A DNA stretch of 4,357 bases from a virus (lineage: Duplodnaviria; Heunggongvirae; Uroviricota; Caudoviricetes). This document shows, piece by piece, positions 1 to 4,357 of the stretch (its first letter is position 1; each line of letters starts with the position of its first letter). The notes under the pieces are model-generated. The model did not search any database and had not been told where the DNA came from. It was given only the letters and a program-made list of their open reading frames with translations. The translations under genes and the position numbers were made by a program. Location: IMG/VR virus record IMGVR_UViG_2693429733_000010, positions 1-4,357 of that record; one strand, 5' to 3'.

Positions 1-26
1 AAAACACTATCAATAAGTTGGAGTCA

Positions 27-140
27 TTACCATTTTTTTGCTGTAGTCCAGTAAAAACCACCTTTAATTCCCAGGCGTTTTCTTACTTTGTCATTTTTTG
101 CTTCGCAATATAGTGCAAATTCTTCTTTATCAGTGCTCAT
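27..140 (-). CDS. small hypothetical protein (37 aa), distal end of the dicB-type operon
   Basis: ATG at 140..138, TAA at 29..27, bounded upstream by an in-frame stop. Translation MSTDKEEFALYCEAKNDKVRKRLGIKGGFYWTTAKKW. A GAGG lies about 10 nt upstream of the ATG (long spacer). Below the track's apparent ~60-aa cutoff, so found by manual translation. Same strand as the upstream operon. No recognisable motif. Confidence 0.3.
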   Translation of the reverse strand: MSTDKEEFALYCEAKNDKVRKRLGIKGGFYWTTAKKW

Positions 141-233
141 TATTGATAAACCTCATCACAGATTTAAGGGTGAACAAATCTCTGCCATTGCTGACATATA
201 AGAATGAAACTGGATATTTATTACGGTGCTGTT

Positions 234-422
234 TTAAAATCCTGCCGGGATTTCGTTATCCTGGTGAATAACTTTATCGACCGGATAACAGTTGCCTGGA
301 ATTTTCTGTTCGGTTGCTGCGGCCATACATTCCTGCATTGTTCTGTGAACACTGACTGCAATATCAACTGGCTCTCCGGAAACAAGAAAAACCGTCAGAA
401 TAAGTGCAAATACTGGATTCAT
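234..422 (-). CDS. ydfD: YdfD-like small protein (62 aa) with N-terminal hydrophobic segment
   Basis: Internal ATG at 422..420 of track ORF 234..476, preceded by AAGGA with about 8 nt spacer. Its ATG overlaps the TGA of the upstream dicB ORF (ATGA, minus-strand 422..419), implying translational coupling. The N-terminus MNPVFALILTVFLVSG is a hydrophobic segment. Size and position after dicB match the Qin prophage ydfD from memory. Confidence 0.65.
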   Translation of the reverse strand: MNPVFALILTVFLVSGEPVDIAVSVHRTMQECMAAATEQKIPGNCYPVDKVIHQDNEIPAGF

Positions 423-607
423 TGTGCACATCCTTTTGGCATCAGACGTAAACGGGCCAGCATTGAAACAATGCATACTTTATTTAATAACTCCCGTTCG
501 TGTTTTCTTTTGTTAATGGCCTCTTCAGTGAATACAGGATTACTGATAGTGACACCAATTTCAAAACAACCTTCAGACGTATTAACGTTTGGTAATAACG
601 TTTTCAT
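419..607 (-). CDS. dicB: DicB cell-division inhibitor (62 aa)
   Basis: Internal ATG at 607..605 of track ORF 419..712 (the track start at 712 is a GTG). SD GAGGG sits 7 nt upstream. Product MKTLLPNVNTSEGCFEIGVTISNPVFTEEAINKRKHERELLNKVCIVSMLARLRLMPKGCAQ is 62 aa, the length of E. coli DicB, and lies immediately downstream of DicF as in the Qin dicB operon. Confidence 0.8.
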   Translation of the reverse strand: MKTLLPNVNTSEGCFEIGVTISNPVFTEEAINKRKHERELLNKVCIVSMLARLRLMPKGCAQ

Positions 608-776
608 TATCGCGCCCTCAACAATGAGTTTTGTGATGCGGTGCCTGGTGCTTCCAGGTGACGTTAACCAGTTAACAATTAACGCCGGATACAGAGAATC
701 CACCCATAACACTGTTTTCGGTTTTAACTGTTCCGCGTGCGCTCAGCCGCATTCACCACATCACAAAATTCACTTT

Positions 777-834
777 AAAAAGGGCGGCAGAGCAGTCACG
801 GAGTAAAACTGATACCGCCAAACGTCACCAGAAA
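777..834 (-). ncRNA. dicF: DicF small regulatory RNA with 3' hairpin and U-tract
   Basis: Minus-strand sequence 834->777 reads TTTCTGGTGACGTTTGGCGGTATCAGTTTTACTCCGTGACTGCTCTGCCGCCCTTTTT. This matches the E. coli DicF sequence as I recall it, including the GGCGG...CCGCC terminal stem and T5 tail. Exact ends depend on processing. Confidence 0.85.
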
Positions 835-856
835 ATTGATAACAGAGGGCGTTGCA

Positions 857-1135
857 GCGGGGTTGTCACTTAAGCGTATGGTCAACCTGACAACCCGGTG
901 TCCTCAACGGGGAAGGAATAACCCCGCCATACTTACCGCCGCGCCATTTCGCGGATTGCCACAACCGGAAGCGCACGGTCGACGAAAATTTAACGACAGA
1001 CCATTTATGAACTAACAGCCTCGCCGTGCGCTTTCGCGTTATGCCCTGACTTTTCAGGGACATATCCTTTCAGTAAACTGTCAGTGCCGGATGCTCACCC
1101 GTGTCCGGCGCACGCACTCCACCTCACCCGTGGAG
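857..1135 (-). other. GC-rich, hairpin-dense untranslated region upstream of DicF on the operon strand (candidate processing or regulatory leader)
   Basis: Six inverted repeats are readable directly: GGGTTGTCA 860-868 / TGACAACCC 888-896; CGGGG 908-912 / CCCCG 922-926; CCGCG 939-943 / CGCGG 950-954; CCCTGA 1044-1049 / TCAGGG 1054-1059; GCCGGA 1086-1091 / TCCGGC 1104-1109; CTCCAC 1117-1122 / GTGGAG 1130-1135. No ORF with a credible RBS on either strand. Strand is assigned from the operon context. Confidence 0.4.
1094..1132. repeat. direct repeat of the 10-mer CTCACCCGTG (1094-1103 and 1123-1132), each inside a hairpin loop/stem
   Basis: Exact 10/10 identity, 29 bp apart, lying 36 and 65 bp upstream of the ATG of the plus-strand ORF at 1168. 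Confidence 0.5.
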
Positions 1136-1167
1136 AACTCCTTAATTACCAACCCTCAGGAGGGTGA

Positions 1168-1401
1168 ATGTTAAAATCAACTCTTATTGCTAAATGCCTT
1201 TATCAAAATCGCATGGTAAGCAGCATTTCAATAGGCGAGTCTGCAGTTAAAAGTATTTTCGAAGAGTACTTTCCCGGGCATGATTTTAATAAATGGAATA
1301 CCAAATTACCGCCAGCAGTTTCAACGCGTATTCTGAAAGCAACTGAAAGAGCAAGTACAATTCGCGTTAACTATTTCATTAAAGATTTGTGGGATCTTTG
1401 A
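1168..1401 (+). CDS. hypothetical protein (77 aa), plus-strand gene in low-GC cassette
   Basis: Track ORF. Strong SD AGGAGGG at 1157-1163 with 4 nt spacer to ATG 1168. AT-rich coding sequence. Convergent with the 135-aa ORF and overlapping it by 23 bp at the 3' ends. No recognisable family. Confidence 0.45.
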   Translation: MLKSTLIAKCLYQNRMVSSISIGESAVKSIFEEYFPGHDFNKWNTKLPPAVSTRILKATERASTIRVNYFIKDLWDL

Positions 1402-1786
1402 TATCCACAGAGCCTAAAGTATGTGCATATGGATGTGCTATTGTGCGCCCTCGCAGATTTGCATCATTTTCTAAATTCACTGAACGAAACAGGGCATCAA
1501 CAAGGCTCTGTACAATGCAAAGGCAATCGAAGACTGTCGCTGTTTCTGTTTTGATTGATGAAAGAACATGGCCATTCACGCAAACAGAAATTACCCGTTC
1601 ATTAACATCGCTTTCCTGCTTTTGATTATCAGAACCATATAGCCCAGAAAAAGCATTGCGCACATTACGAACCATATTATCGATGGTTTCTTTTTTGGTG
1701 TATGCCGGGTCAATTTTCACCAGACTATCACCGAGAGTCGTTGCAGCAATTGTCTGGATTTCTTTTGGTAAATCTTTAAATTCCAT
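1379..1786 (-). CDS. hypothetical protein (135 aa) in the leftward operon, low-GC
   Basis: Track ORF. ATG at 1786..1784 with GAGG 6 nt upstream. Lies 22 nt downstream of the stop of the 72-aa gene, so operon context holds. No TM segment or recognisable motif. AT-rich relative to flanks. Confidence 0.6.
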   Translation of the reverse strand: MEFKDLPKEIQTIAATTLGDSLVKIDPAYTKKETIDNMVRNVRNAFSGLYGSDNQKQESDVNERVISVCVNGHVLSSIKTETATVFDCLCIVQSLVDALFRSVNLENDANLRGRTIAHPYAHTLGSVDIKDPTNL

Positions 1787-1808
1787 TATTAGCCTCGTTG
1801 GTTAACCA

Positions 1809-2027
1809 TTAACGTGGGTATGTAATCATTCTGGCAATGCTTAATGCCGCTGCTTTTTCCAGATTGGTGATATCCTGCTCCAGAGCGGACAGATTTTCAG
1901 CCTGCTTAGCCCTGGCTTCATTGGCCCATTTCAGGTCCTGCGCAGCCTTAATTTTCTGGTGCATCCACTCATAAAGTTCATCATCGGTATAGTCTGGCGC
2001 GATGATGACGGGTTCTCGTTTCTGCAT
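1809..2027 (-). CDS. small operon protein (72 aa), YdfC-like by size and position
   Basis: Track ORF. ATG at 2027..2025 with SD GAGGA about 6 nt upstream. Third gene after the 51-aa and 42-aa genes, mirroring ydfA-ydfB-ydfC (51/42/72 aa) of the Qin dicB operon. Sequence identity to YdfC is not verified. Confidence 0.6.
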   Translation of the reverse strand: MQKREPVIIAPDYTDDELYEWMHQKIKAAQDLKWANEARAKQAENLSALEQDITNLEKAAALSIARMITYPR

Positions 2028-2056
2028 ACTGATTCCTCGCGGTGCTGCTTCGCTTA

Positions 2057-2185
2057 TCAGCCGTTAGATTTTGCCGAGCTGGAAAGCGCCTGTTTAAACT
2101 CACTGAAGCTGAGAGCTTCTTCGCCTTCGGCAAGGCCTTCGAAGTATTCTTCGTAAGCCTTTTCCATGATTGTGTCGAAATCCAT
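2057..2185 (-). CDS. YdfB/YdaG-like small protein (42 aa)
   Basis: Not in the track (under 60 aa). ATG at 2185..2183 with SD AGGTGA 5 nt upstream, TGA at 2059..2057. Translation MDFDTIMEKAYEEYFEGLAEGEEALSFSEFKQALSSSAKSNG. An in-frame upstream ATG at 2227 would give a 56-aa form overlapping the preceding gene. Confidence 0.6.
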   Translation of the reverse strand: MDFDTIMEKAYEEYFEGLAEGEEALSFSEFKQALSSSAKSNG

Positions 2186-2186
2186 A

Positions 2187-2342
2187 TCACTCACCTGAGT
2201 TTCTTTCCAGCCAGCGACGGGCACCATTTTCGGTTTTAAACGTTTTGCTTTTGGTATACGTCATCGCGGTAAACGTTCCATCCTGGTTAGGGAACACGCC
2301 GCACACCAGAGATTCGTTGTTGCCAAGATCGATAGTATCCAT
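2187..2342 (-). CDS. YdfA/YdaF-like small protein (51 aa)
   Basis: Internal ATG at 2342..2340 of track ORF 2187..2423, with GAGG about 5 nt upstream. Translation MDTIDLGNNESLVCGVFPNQDGTFTAMTYTKSKTFKTENGARRWLERNSGE. First gene downstream of the pL-like promoter. Confidence 0.65.
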   Translation of the reverse strand: MDTIDLGNNESLVCGVFPNQDGTFTAMTYTKSKTFKTENGARRWLERNSGE

Positions 2343-2522
2343 GTTGACCTCATTTCCCCTTAACGCCGGGGTAGCGGAACAAAAACCTGCTGCATAGTTA
2401 TTAAAGTTGAACCCTGCCGTCATGTTCTTACGCCTCGGGCTGGCTACTTAACCCCTGACCACTGTCTGGTAACTCGAAGTATTGCCCTGCATTCTGTGGG
2501 GCGGGGTGGGTTGACGCCTGAA

Positions 2523-2551
2523 AAAATAGCATCATTATTTTTTGATGTAAA
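2523..2551 (-). promoter_or_regulatory. pL-like leftward promoter: -35 TTTACA (2551..2546), 17-nt spacer, TG-extended -10 TATTTT (2528..2523)
   Basis: Minus strand reads TTTACA-17 nt-TATTTT with TG at -15/-14. Both hexamers overlap the two OL palindromes. Predicted start near 2516, leader about 175 nt to the ydfA-like ATG. Confidence 0.5.
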
Positions 2552-2565
2552 TAGCATCGCTATTG
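2524..2565. promoter_or_regulatory. OL-like operator pair: two 17-bp palindromic sites, centres 25 bp apart
   Basis: 2549-2565 AAATAGCATCGCTATTG (core ATAGCATCGCTAT is a perfect palindrome) and 2524-2540 AAATAGCATCATTATTT (15/17 to consensus). The same core recurs at OR. Confidence 0.7.
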
Positions 2566-2581
2566 TTTTTGTTGGGGCAAG

Positions 2582-2603
2582 AAAAAACCACCCTAAGGTG
2601 GTT
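2582..2603 (-). terminator. intrinsic terminator candidate after the toxin gene
   Basis: Minus strand: stem AACCACC / GGTGGTT (plus 2586-2592 / 2597-2603), 4-nt loop, then a T-run (plus-strand A6 at 2582-2587). Sits 17 nt past the toxin stop and just before OL. The stem is short, so moderate strength at best. Confidence 0.5.
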
Positions 2604-2619
2604 CTGTCGGCGGGAATAA

Positions 2620-2910
2620 TTAACTGTTTTTGCCTGGATACTGTCTTCGAGAATGCACAATATTTACTACTTCTATGCTTGATGCTGTTACTCGGTAAAG
2701 GATGATGTAGTTAGGATGAGTTACAATTTCACGAAGACCAAGAACTCGCTCGCTTGGAGGATACAGGTAAGGATGCTCTGTGAGCGGCAAAACGGATGTT
2801 TCAATTCGAATTTTCATTCTGCGTGCTGCCGCGGGATTTTCTTTAGCTATGTAGGCTACGATCTGGCGCAAATCATCACGAGCAGATGGTAGCCATAAAA
2901 CGGGTAACAT
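2620..2910 (-). CDS. parE: type II toxin, ParE/RelE family (96 aa), parE2-like
   Basis: Track ORF. ATG overlaps the antitoxin stop by 1 nt (minus strand TAATG at 2912..2908). Product is basic, about 11 kDa, consistent with the RelE/ParE fold. Lies downstream of a small acidic antitoxin-like gene. Confidence 0.85.
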   Translation of the reverse strand: MLPVLWLPSARDDLRQIVAYIAKENPAAARRMKIRIETSVLPLTEHPYLYPPSERVLGLREIVTHPNYIILYRVTASSIEVVNIVHSRRQYPGKNS

Positions 2911-3104
2911 TATTCACCTCTGTGAGTTGCAGCAGCAATTTGGGCAATAATTTGTTCCATTTCCGCCATTACCTCATCATGCGGAATCGCCGGGCGGGGA
3001 TCCGCGAGGCTTGCTGCTACTTTGGCCCGCAGCCATTCGTTGTAACTATTTTCTTGCTCAACTGTCTCAAATTCTGAAACCATTGGGGAAAGGACTGTAC
3101 TCAT
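2910..3104 (-). CDS. type II antitoxin (64 aa), PaaA2-like
   Basis: Track ORF. ATG at 3104 with SD GAGGAG about 9 nt upstream, only 19 nt after the repressor stop. Small acidic protein MSTVLSPMVSEFETVEQENSYNEWLRAKVAASLADPRPAIPHDEVMAEMEQIIAQIAAATHRGE. Matches the PaaA2 antitoxin size of the O157:H7 paaR2-paaA2-parE2 system from memory. Confidence 0.75.
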   Translation of the reverse strand: MSTVLSPMVSEFETVEQENSYNEWLRAKVAASLADPRPAIPHDEVMAEMEQIIAQIAAATHRGE

Positions 3105-3123
3105 TTTACATATCTCCTCTGAT

Positions 3124-3624
3124 TTAGGCGCGACGGCCTTTTTGTGCAGCTAACCACCGCGCAACCGTACGATCCATTGATTCTTTTTTATCTTTCATCT
3201 CCTGAAGCATGTGTTCTTGATCTTCTTTCGGAAAAGCTCTGAACGTATGGATTAAATCTCGTTCCATCGGCTCTACGGCAAACGGTAGTTCATCCTCTGT
3301 TTGTTCTGTGTCTGCTGGTAATGCGACTATGTTATCTTGCTGTGGTTCTCGACAATACATCCTTGCAATTTGCAGCAAATCTACCATGTCTGGCCTGATT
3401 GACTCAGGGGGAACTTTCAGTAAGCCAGCAAACTTTAGAACAGCCTCAAGGTTTAGTGGGGTTTGACCATTTAGGTAGTGACTTACCGCCCCTTGTGTTG
3501 AAAACCCCATAATTTCCGCCGCACGTTCCTGAGTCAATCCCAACTGAGATTTCTTTGCCATCCAGATTTCTTTCAGTCTTCTGGCGGCGTTGAGGTCGGT
3601 GTCTGACAATGATTTTCTTTTCAT
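3124..3624 (-). CDS. cI-like HTH (XRE-family) prophage repressor, 166 aa; PaaR2/RacR-like, no S24 peptidase domain
   Basis: Track ORF 3124..3654 begins at a GTG; the first ATG is at 3624..3622 (MKRKSLSDTDL...). HTH motif LTQERAAEIMGFSTQGAVSHYLNGQ. The C-terminal ~100 aa is acidic and lacks the GDSM-type serine motif of LexA/cI peptidases. Divergent from a cro-like gene across palindromic operators. Confidence 0.85.
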   Translation of the reverse strand: MKRKSLSDTDLNAARRLKEIWMAKKSQLGLTQERAAEIMGFSTQGAVSHYLNGQTPLNLEAVLKFAGLLKVPPESIRPDMVDLLQIARMYCREPQQDNIVALPADTEQTEDELPFAVEPMERDLIHTFRAFPKEDQEHMLQEMKDKKESMDRTVARWLAAQKGRRA

Positions 3625-3657
3625 ACATCCAATTCTAATAAGATTGCTAATCACTTT

Positions 3658-3686
3658 GAAATAGCATCGCTATTTACTTTTAAAAA
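3658..3686 (-). promoter_or_regulatory. PRM-like maintenance promoter candidate: TG-extended -10 TATTTC (3663..3658), weak -35 TTTTTA (3686..3681)
   Basis: Minus strand reads gaTGcTATTTC, embedded in the OR1 palindrome, the same motif as the pL -10. The weak -35 fits an activator-dependent PRM. Leader about 27 nt to ATG 3624. Confidence 0.35.
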
Positions 3687-3700
3687 TAACAGTGCTATTA
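3659..3700. promoter_or_regulatory. OR-like operator pair: 17-bp palindromes, centres 25 bp apart
   Basis: 3659-3675 AAATAGCATCGCTATTT is a perfect 17-bp palindrome. 3684-3700 AAATAACAGTGCTATTA matches it at 13/17. Same spacing and core as the OL pair. Confidence 0.7.
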
Positions 3701-3701
3701 A
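3673..3701 (+). promoter_or_regulatory. PR-like rightward promoter candidate: -35 TTTACT (3673-3678), 17-nt spacer, -10 TATTAA (3696-3701)
   Basis: Hexamers overlap OR1 and OR2 respectively, a mirror image of the pL/OL layout. Predicted start near 3708, upstream of the cro-like ATG at 3736. Confidence 0.4.
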
Positions 3702-3735
3702 TTATGCATTGGTAACACATCACATAGGGCGGATT

Positions 3736-3999
3736 ATGAATCTTGGAGAATATTTGCATCATTTTCATATAACCCAGAGTTCATTTGCTGAGATTGTTGG
3801 CGCATCCCAAGGGATGGTCAGCCACGTTATAACGGGGCGTGCAAAACTTACAGGAGAAAAAATATTACGTTGGTGTGAAGCAACGGGATGGGTGGTGACC
3901 CCACATGAGATTGACAGTAAAACCTACCCCAACCCAACTGACGGCTTGCCTGCTGAGTTTCAGGCTAACACACAACCATCGGCGGGGGTTGATTCATGA
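3736..3999 (+). CDS. Cro/YdaS-like small HTH regulator (87 aa)
   Basis: Track ORF 3709..3999 starts at a TTG; the first ATG is at 3736, preceded by GGG/GGCGG. HTH motif QSSFAEIVGASQGMVSHVITGR. Divergent from the repressor across OR. Confidence 0.8.
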   Translation: MNLGEYLHHFHITQSSFAEIVGASQGMVSHVITGRAKLTGEKILRWCEATGWVVTPHEIDSKTYPNPTDGLPAEFQANTQPSAGVDS

Positions 4000-4357
4000 A
4001 AATCAAGCATGAACACATCCGCATGGCGATGAAAGCCTGGGCGCATCCGGACGGTGAAAAAGTTCCGGCAGCTGAAATAACCAGGGTTTATTTCGAACTG
4101 GGAATGACGTTTCCGGTTCTGCATAACGACAGCAAGCACAACACGCTTTATCTCAACACCCAAAAGATTTTCCGTTGGCTGGATAAAGACACCCCTGACG
4201 CTGTTGAAAAAATTCAGGCGTTGTTACCTGCGATCGAAAGGGCAATGCCACCTCCGCTGGTGGCTCGAATGCGCAGCCACAGTTCAGCTTATTTTCGGGA
4301 ACTGGTGGAGACGCATGAACGACTGGTGAGAGACGCTGATGATTTTGTCGCAGTGGC
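3996..4357 (+). CDS. YdaT-like protein (proposed CII-like role), 5' partial, runs off window end
   Basis: ATG at 3996 overlaps the cro-like TGA (ATGA coupling). Open frame for 120 codons to the window end (MKIKHEHIRMAMKAWAHPDGEKVPAAEIT...). Absent from the track because no stop falls in the window. Position after the cro-like gene matches ydaS-ydaT. Confidence 0.7.
   Translation, partial: MKIKHEHIRMAMKAWAHPDGEKVPAAEITRVYFELGMTFPVLHNDSKHNTLYLNTQKIFRWLDKDTPDAVEKIQALLPAIERAMPPPLVARMRSHSSAYFRELVETHERLVRDADDFVAV

Follow-up and report, generated by a model that had tools for sequence, protein, structure and literature searches.

The 4,357-nt stretch analysed here (positions 1 to 4,357 of IMG/VR record IMGVR_UViG_2693429733_000010), which we call the window, comes from a Qin-like lambdoid prophage of Escherichia coli and represents its immunity and early-left region, with the early-left (dicB) operon on the minus strand. 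Between ydfC and the leader of the small RNA DicF lies a cassette of two convergent open reading frames (ORFs), ORF77 and ORF135. By alignment, this cassette is one allele of a hypervariable slot rather than a one-off insertion, and ORF77 and the C-terminal domain of ORF135 (the partner domain) form a convergent, overlapping pair that recurs in prophages of other genera. We tentatively propose that the two proteins are cognate antagonists expressed in opposite phases, lysogenic and lytic, with a role in exclusion with self-escape or as an antidote system. The features of the cassette are as follows.

1155–1789: variable cassette, 635 bp, delimited by alignment with K-12, MS8324 and AVS0655
1168–1401 (+): ORF77, 77 amino acids (aa), reading against the early-left (dicB) operon; WP_000920491; phrog_10348
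1158–1164 (+): Shine-Dalgarno (SD) sequence AGGAGGG of ORF77, read from the sequence; conserved in four slot alleles
1379–1786 (−): ORF135, 135 aa, in-operon two-domain fusion; WP_000394519; phrog_1363
1794–1797 (−): GAGG ribosome-binding site of ORF135 (CCTC on the plus strand), read from the sequence
1622–1786 (−): 'MEFKDLP' N-domain, residues 1–55 of ORF135, common to all slot alleles
1382–1603 (−): partner domain, residues 62–135 of ORF135, homologous to stand-alone 75–90-aa proteins; phrog_23433
1379–1401: convergent 3' overlap, 23 nt (TTA-N17-TGA), encoding both C-termini

A convergent gene pair in a hypervariable slot

Both ORFs are real genes rather than chance frames, because they belong to large conserved families with low ratios of nonsynonymous to synonymous substitution (dN/dS). 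The ORF77 family comprises 159 representatives at 50% clustering; nearly all are stand-alone proteins of 74–80 aa, almost never fused, and relatives keep the motifs M-x-K-S-T-x-I-A-x-C-L, F-P...W-N and F-I-x-D-L-W. Median dN/dS is 0.13 for ORF77 (0.11–0.26 in unsaturated pairs) and ∼0.16 for the C-terminal domain of ORF135 in unsaturated pairs, values that indicate purifying selection on both.

The AlphaFold2 (AF2) model of ORF77 is compact and all-helical, with five helices (pLDDT 97.1, pTM 0.86). No credible fold relative of this model was found in the PDB or in BFVD, the latter returning only an uncharacterised homologue. Neither ORF77 nor any of 52 members of its family matches Pfam, and no transmembrane segment is predicted (maximum 19-residue hydropathy 0.59). 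Two labels were set aside. The N-terminus (LIAKC) lacks the hydrophobic core of a lipoprotein or signal peptide and is helical in the model, and 'dGTP triphosphohydrolase', the name that one public source gives to the exact ORF77 sequence, is implausible at 77 aa and is supported by no search or fold match.

ORF135 is, on sequence comparison, a fusion of a resident 55-aa MEFKDLP N-domain with a mobile domain of ∼75 aa. PHROGs 6937, 2151, 9419 and 33007 match residues 1–55/72 only, the families diverging after about residue 55, and homologues join the N-domain to unrelated C-domains. The partner domain is 35–39% identical to stand-alone 75–90-aa prophage proteins of Klebsiella, Serratia, Proteus and Photorhabdus; a profile search collected 95 clusters of this family across Enterobacterales, with hidden Markov model (HMM) matches also in Herbaspirillum and Burkholderia. 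In the AF2 model (pLDDT 71 overall, ∼80 in the C-domain), an N-terminal helical hairpin is joined through a disordered linker (residues 49–61) to a beta-beta-alpha-alpha C-domain, and no credible structural neighbour of the model was found. A few partner-family proteins carry an N-terminal ClpX-type zinc finger; in those of Citrobacter (L023/L024 3001–3420; P0119, P0161–P0163) a C4 finger of this type (PF06689) replaces MEFKDLP.

An earlier note on this DNA had described a low-GC cassette of two genes without a recognisable motif, absent from the Qin arrangement, and on each of these points the analysis agrees with it; of the outcomes that the note named as contrary to its reading, none was observed. 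Both ORFs are present, with the AGGAGGG and GAGG ribosome-binding sites. For the two proteins, Pfam, NCBIfam and PADLOC 2.0 returned nothing significant (PADLOC none at E up to 1) and no enzyme motif; PDB sequence profiles gave no significant match, and both proteins are soluble by prediction, with no transmembrane segments. RefSeq annotates each as a hypothetical protein (WP_000920491, WP_000394519), and PHROGs assign ORF77 (10348) and ORF135 (1363, 23433) only to families of unknown function. Literature on the accessions and on the ydfC–dicF region yielded no study of the cassette genes, which are catalogued so far only under these headings.

GC content is 39.3% in the cassette (∼0.30 at third codon positions, GC3), compared to 48–49% in ydfA, ydfB and ydfC (GC3 0.52–0.54) and 54% in the DicF leader. 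In composition the cassette is thus distinct from its immediate flanks, although AT-richness is not limited to it: dicB has 37% GC and a GC3 of 0.30. In K-12 Qin, window positions 1155–1789 are missing, the flanks abut and the boundaries are sharp in the alignment. The full-length cassette occurs in 643 of 5426 complete E. coli genomes (∼1 in 8), with O157:H7, O26, O111, O145 and many porcine enterotoxigenic strains among the carriers, as well as in the temperate phage Evi (LR597642). From plasmids it is essentially absent (1 of 72,556 records). A 10-nt perfect inverted repeat flanks ORF135; we dropped a functional reading of it, as it is near chance expectation and is not seen in other alleles.

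How consistently the two genes travel together was assessed in ∼100 loci that carry a relative of ORF77, some two-thirds of which are nearly identical copies from E. coli. Provided that the prophage locus is intact and not truncated by the end of a contig, the ORF77 relative always converges on a partner-domain gene and the 3' ends overlap. The overlap is 23 nt in most (including the window, Klebsiella, Serratia, Proteus and Herbaspirillum) and 24, 26 or 51 nt in some lineages; convergent pairs are seen also in Hafnia and Citrobacter. Pairs from Herbaspirillum (76 aa and 84 aa, 23-nt overlap, partner HMM E 5e-11) and Burkholderia ambifaria (75 aa and 92 aa, 24-nt overlap, partner HMM E 4e-6) are located in immunity regions of prophages and have flanks that are otherwise unrelated. 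The earlier assignment of the cassette to the dicB operon therefore holds for the window but not in general: judging from these loci, the pair belongs to prophages of Beta- and Gammaproteobacteria and is not restricted to dicB operons.

Exceptions to pairing are a lone copy in Psychrosphaera, a frameshifted ORF77 in Photorhabdus and two truncated copies. The Psychrosphaera copy, from a metagenome-assembled genome (L015 4989–5228), is a 79-aa relative with 43% identity, located between PAS/chemoreceptor and glycoside hydrolase genes. Genes neighbouring the pair include those for RdgC, ParB-like and exonuclease proteins. In one Serratia prophage (L009 4713–5636, minus strand), a 307-aa gene matching the PADLOC candidate defence family PDC-S42 (E 1e-85) lies between the repressor and the early-left operators, adjoining the ORF77–partner module.

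At least six alleles of the slot were found in E. coli and Salmonella. Each combines the MEFKDLP N-domain and a variable C-domain with a different convergent small gene.

In-operon 135 aa; small gene 77 aa; 23-nt overlap (the window)
In-operon 106 aa; small gene 91 aa; 23-nt overlap
In-operon 201 aa; small gene 63 aa; 23-nt overlap
In-operon 208 aa; small gene 69 aa; abutting
In-operon 186 aa; small gene 80 aa; 44-nt overlap
In-operon 133 aa; small gene 92 aa; 41-nt overlap

The six in-operon proteins are alike over residues 1–50 and show no similarity beyond, except for the 201-aa allele, a common variant that consists of ORF135 residues 1–128 plus a further domain. No Pfam domain, and no toxin, secretion or delivery domain, was found in them. 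Five of the small proteins fall into separate PHROGs (10348, 18692, 2605, 4274, 10133), and the 91-aa ORF of MS8324 has only a weak match to 18692; the 91-aa and 92-aa proteins are the only two detectably related. Variation also occurs at the N-domain: the O157:H7 copy has an identical ORF77 and an ORF135 whose main difference is another allele of the N-domain at residues 8–31. Three unrelated allele pairs share an exact 23-nt overlap of the form TTA-N17-TRA (window 1379–1401, L003 1823–1845, L025 3584–3606), the sequences themselves being dissimilar.

Operon position, leader and candidate promoters

The minus-strand operon of the window runs ydfA, ydfB, ydfC, ORF135 (with ORF77 opposing), DicF, dicB and a DUF1482 gene. 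Its control elements and the surrounding features are listed below.

3124–3654 (−): helix-turn-helix (HTH) repressor of the immunity region
2620–3104 (−): PaaA2 antitoxin (PF21217) and ParE toxin (PF05016) pair, directly downstream of the repressor
2526–2563 and 3661–3698: 13-bp probable operator palindrome ATAGCATCGCTAT in four copies, which flank the repressor block in two pairs
1809–2027 (−): ydfC, the upstream operon neighbour of ORF135
1084–1167 (+): putative structured leader upstream of ORF77, 84 nt, common to all six small-gene alleles and kept in K-12
1051–1079 (+): candidate weak sigma-70 promoter for ORF77, TTTTCA-17-TAAACT, read by eye
782–833 (−): DicF small RNA (Rfam RF00039, 76.7 bits), downstream in the operon

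The number of ATAGCATCGCTAT palindromes was equalled in 0 of 200 shuffles, and the four copies are likely the oL and oR operators. ORF135 is the fourth gene of the operon and lies downstream of the oL-type operators at 2526–2563. In Klebsiella, Serratia and Hafnia, operator repeats of the cI–cro gap are found a second time immediately before the partner gene; in Klebsiella they are overlapped by a promoter match of 10/12, and in Hafnia a terminator follows cI. The recurrence of the repeats indicates that a repressor-controlled early-left operon starts with the partner gene in these three genera. An N-like antiterminator, suggested by this first-early-gene position, was considered for the partner and dropped, as there is no arginine-rich N-terminus.

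In all loci the ORF77 relative lies on the strand opposite the early-left operon and so is not read from the early-left promoter. Given this, ORF77 would need a promoter of its own. In 19 of 19 leaders outside E. coli, the sequence TGnTAnnnT is invariant ∼35 nt before the ORF77 ATG, a pattern that we read as a candidate extended −10 element; in L096, a terminator-like hairpin with a T-run abuts it (reading by eye). A Salmonella allele has a −10-like TAAAAT at the same distance from the first leader hairpin as the candidate −10 of the window. No terminator was found directly after ORF77.

The leader of the window is predicted to fold into hairpins at 1084–1111 and 1117–1135 and an SD-containing hairpin at 1142–1174. 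It opens with the hairpin GTGCCGGATGC...GTGTCCGGCGC, followed by the second hairpin and then an anti-SD/SD pairing, and occurs in two subtypes; the fold has −36 kcal/mol (z = −3.95; other z = −3.37). The loops of the two leader hairpins contain CTCACCCGTG, a 10-nt direct repeat without mismatches (1094–1103, 1123–1132). A related element precedes ORF77 relatives in other genera, which have no DicF. The element was not retained as a structured RNA, the RNAalifold consensus across genera being only −2.2 kcal/mol and Rfam giving no match.

K-12 Qin keeps the leader though it is without the small gene. Because this leader is common to all alleles and its relatives precede ORF77 in genera that have no DicF, it is more likely that K-12 lost the cassette than that the window gained it. 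The earlier suggestion of a moron-type insertion thus survives in part. The cassette is sharp-edged, and of the two genes only ORF77, with its opposite orientation, fits the moron picture of a separate unit; ORF135, with its resident N-domain and mobile C-domain, is a gene of the operon, and the existence of at least six alternative pairs speaks against a single insertion event.

Several other features of the window were seen in passing. A plus-strand terminator-like hairpin, TGGCAATGCTTAATGCCG, with a T-run lies inside the 3' end of ydfC (1832–1849). In K-12 (L002 ∼1480–1660) the leader and this hairpin are only ∼100 nt apart and could conceivably give a short antisense RNA against the 3' end of ydfC. 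In the leader of the DicF precursor, the hairpin CCCTGA-CTTT-TCAGGG (1043–1061; the operon strand reads CCCTGA-AAAG-TCAGGG) bears a loose likeness to lambdoid boxB. Between DicF and dicB, positions 630–770 of the minus strand match STnc100 of Rfam at 36.5 bits, below the gathering score of 47. The PaaA2–ParE pair is placed as 'rex' would be, with the repressor on one side and the early-left operators on the other, and together with the HTH repressor it resembles the three-gene paaR-paaA-parE arrangement. Window positions 1100–1850 are 100% identical to E. coli FDAARGOS_943. Despite this exact match over the cassette, the immunity block of the window (∼2450–4357) differs from that of L001, with PaaA2/ParE and another repressor, which illustrates mosaicism immediately to the right of ydfA.

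A proposed antagonistic pair and alternative explanations

Under our proposal, the early regions of temperate phages carry an old and mobile module of two genes, and the cassette is its E. coli version. The partner, read from the repressor-controlled early-left promoter, would be silent in the lysogen and made at once on induction or infection. Expression of the two genes would then be mutually exclusive, with ORF77 produced during lysogeny and the partner after activation of the early operon; read-through of that operon, antisense across all of ORF77, would silence ORF77 while the partner accumulates. One protein would bind and neutralise the other, and that both are small, soluble and without an enzyme motif fits action by binding. 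Such a pair may serve phage–phage competition or self-protection. In one version ORF77 would act in exclusion, with the partner enabling the phage itself to escape; in the other the partner would be an immediate-early effector directed at the host and ORF77 the antidote of the lysogen.

Linkage of the genes, the position of the partner, the own-promoter motif outside E. coli, the paired polymorphism and purifying selection all point towards cognate antagonists, a reading that we favour only tentatively. A number of observations weigh against it. TGnTAnnnT is absent from the ORF77 leader of the window, where the only candidate promoter falls below the threshold of the promoter scan. Disruptions are found in both directions with the other gene intact: ORF77 is frameshifted in Photorhabdus, the small gene is missing in AVS0655, and in E. 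coli O26:H11 FWSEC0001 (L004 ∼1970–3230) IS600 interrupts ORF135 at about window position 1569, leaving ORF77 intact. The Psychrosphaera relative has no partner gene and no phage context. The 201-aa variant keeps the partner domain intact and conserved without ORF77, and hence the partner domain can persist without it. Finally, paired variation within E. coli could come from block exchange between conserved flanks.

The last point can be developed into an explanation of its own, in which the two genes are independent accessory genes (morons), adjacent only through block inheritance or exchange. Two conserved flanks, the leader and the coding sequence of the N-domain, allow cassettes to be swapped, and tolerated loss of either gene, the partner domain of the 201-aa variant and the lone Psychrosphaera relative are all as expected for unlinked functions. 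We nonetheless regard this as unlikely. The pair stays convergent and overlapping across Beta- and Gammaproteobacteria, in all examined intact prophage loci and despite wholly different flanks, which is hard to explain without functional coupling. Less likely still is a mainly regulatory role, in which transcription from the ORF77 leader meets that of the early-left operon head-on, acting by interference or as antisense and so gating DicF and dicB, with the proteins as secondary passengers. The leader is strongly structured, common to all alleles despite their varied coding content and kept in K-12 without a small gene, and the module separates the early promoter from the toxic dicF and dicB. 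However, ORF77 is kept as a protein of fixed length over large distances (dN/dS 0.13), nothing like DicF is found downstream in other genera, and RNAalifold shows no conserved RNA structure across genera.

The early-left operon of lambda is rich in host-takeover and anti-defence genes such as Ral, Gam and Kil, and both proteins might be lytic-phase factors of this kind, with ORF77 read from a separate early promoter. The position of the partner as first early gene and the RdgC, ParB-like and exonuclease neighbours would suit such a role. Against it, the orientation of ORF77 towards a strong early promoter would penalise its expression exactly while the early operon is active, and neither protein resembles any known anti-defence protein; we give this explanation no more credence than the regulatory one. 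A classical type II toxin–antitoxin (TA) addiction module is suggested by the small size and adjacency of the two genes, by their paired variation and by the presence of PaaA2–ParE on the same mobile element. It is very improbable, failing on orientation (convergent with a 23-nt overlap, rather than co-directional or co-transcribed), on family membership (no toxin or antitoxin family or fold match) and on the single-gene disruptions that leave the other gene intact; in addition, one of the genes is under prophage repressor control.

Taking the antagonistic pair one step further, the slot might be a second immunity layer of temperate phages, consisting of an allele-specific immediate-early domain and a small inhibitor encoded antisense to it and expressed in the lysogen. 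The convergent overlap would hard-wire mutually exclusive expression, and alleles would diversify through phage–phage competition much as repressor/operator specificities do. This extension is speculative and, in our estimate, improbable.

Two anonymous ORFs have thus become a defined system, conserved from Burkholderia to E. coli, in whose slot whole pairs are exchanged. Many more E. coli genomes hold a sister allele, and all such proteins are 'hypotheticals' in the databases. Should the pairs prove to be cognate antagonists, the repertoire of TA, exclusion and self-immunity systems would gain a new architecture, and the pairs would help explain allele diversity beside prophage immunity regions. 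In E. coli the slot has the early promoter on one side and the toxic dicF and dicB on the other, so that plus-strand transcription could also affect how tightly these two genes are silenced.

Comparison with known systems

A close parallel in setting is sieB/esc of P22 and lambda, found as sieB also in Rac. There, an accessory gene of the early-left region has its own promoter in the lysogen; sieB of Rac lies on the strand opposite the early operon, and a phage-encoded escape product spares the phage itself. Likewise, ORF77 is located in the early-left region, on the opposite strand, and is not read from the early-left promoter. The proteins themselves are different. ORF77 has no homology to SieB, a membrane protein of ∼160–190 aa, and is predicted to be a soluble 77-aa helical bundle without fold similarity to it; Esc is an in-frame product of sieB, whereas the partner here is a convergent gene. 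In P2 and 186, face-to-face promoter switches involve the repressor and Cro-like genes themselves. The likeness is that convergent units in the control region of a temperate phage could exclude each other, but the products here are accessory proteins without an HTH motif.

Type II TA systems, such as the PaaA2–ParE pair of the window, also consist of two small cognate proteins on a prophage; here, the genes are convergent, form no operon, match no family and are under different transcriptional control. CdiA-CT/CdiI and Rhs systems share the combination of a conserved N-terminal part with unrelated C-domains, each with its own small adjacent gene. They differ from the slot in that its proteins have no secretion, delivery or toxin domain and are only 106–208 aa long, and in that the small gene is convergent and overlapping rather than downstream in the same direction. 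BstA/aba (PMC8585504) likewise sits beside a prophage repressor, and its logic, that a factor expressed in the lysogen must be neutralised when the prophage turns lytic, would be the one proposed here; BstA is, however, a single protein of ∼300 aa whose antidote is a DNA element, compared to two proteins here and no PADLOC match.

With the dicB operon of K-12 Qin (ydfABC-dicF-dicB-ydfD; PMC5069750) the window shares backbone, DicF, dicB and leader sequence, the difference being that the whole variable slot (window 1155–1789) is missing from K-12. A comparison of dicBF regions in the same paper displays non-conserved genes in O157 prophages, without comment. As to morons, the cassette has the expected hallmarks of sharp ends against an otherwise collinear K-12 Qin that lacks it and a composition unlike its immediate flanks. 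The cassette is therefore familiar in kind, an accessory cassette in a hotspot of the prophage early region and possibly an antagonistic pair. What appears new, as far as sequence comparison can tell, is the architecture, in which a convergent overlap is conserved, the partner is an immediate-early gene, the alleles have one expression leader in common and pairs of domain and small gene can be exchanged.

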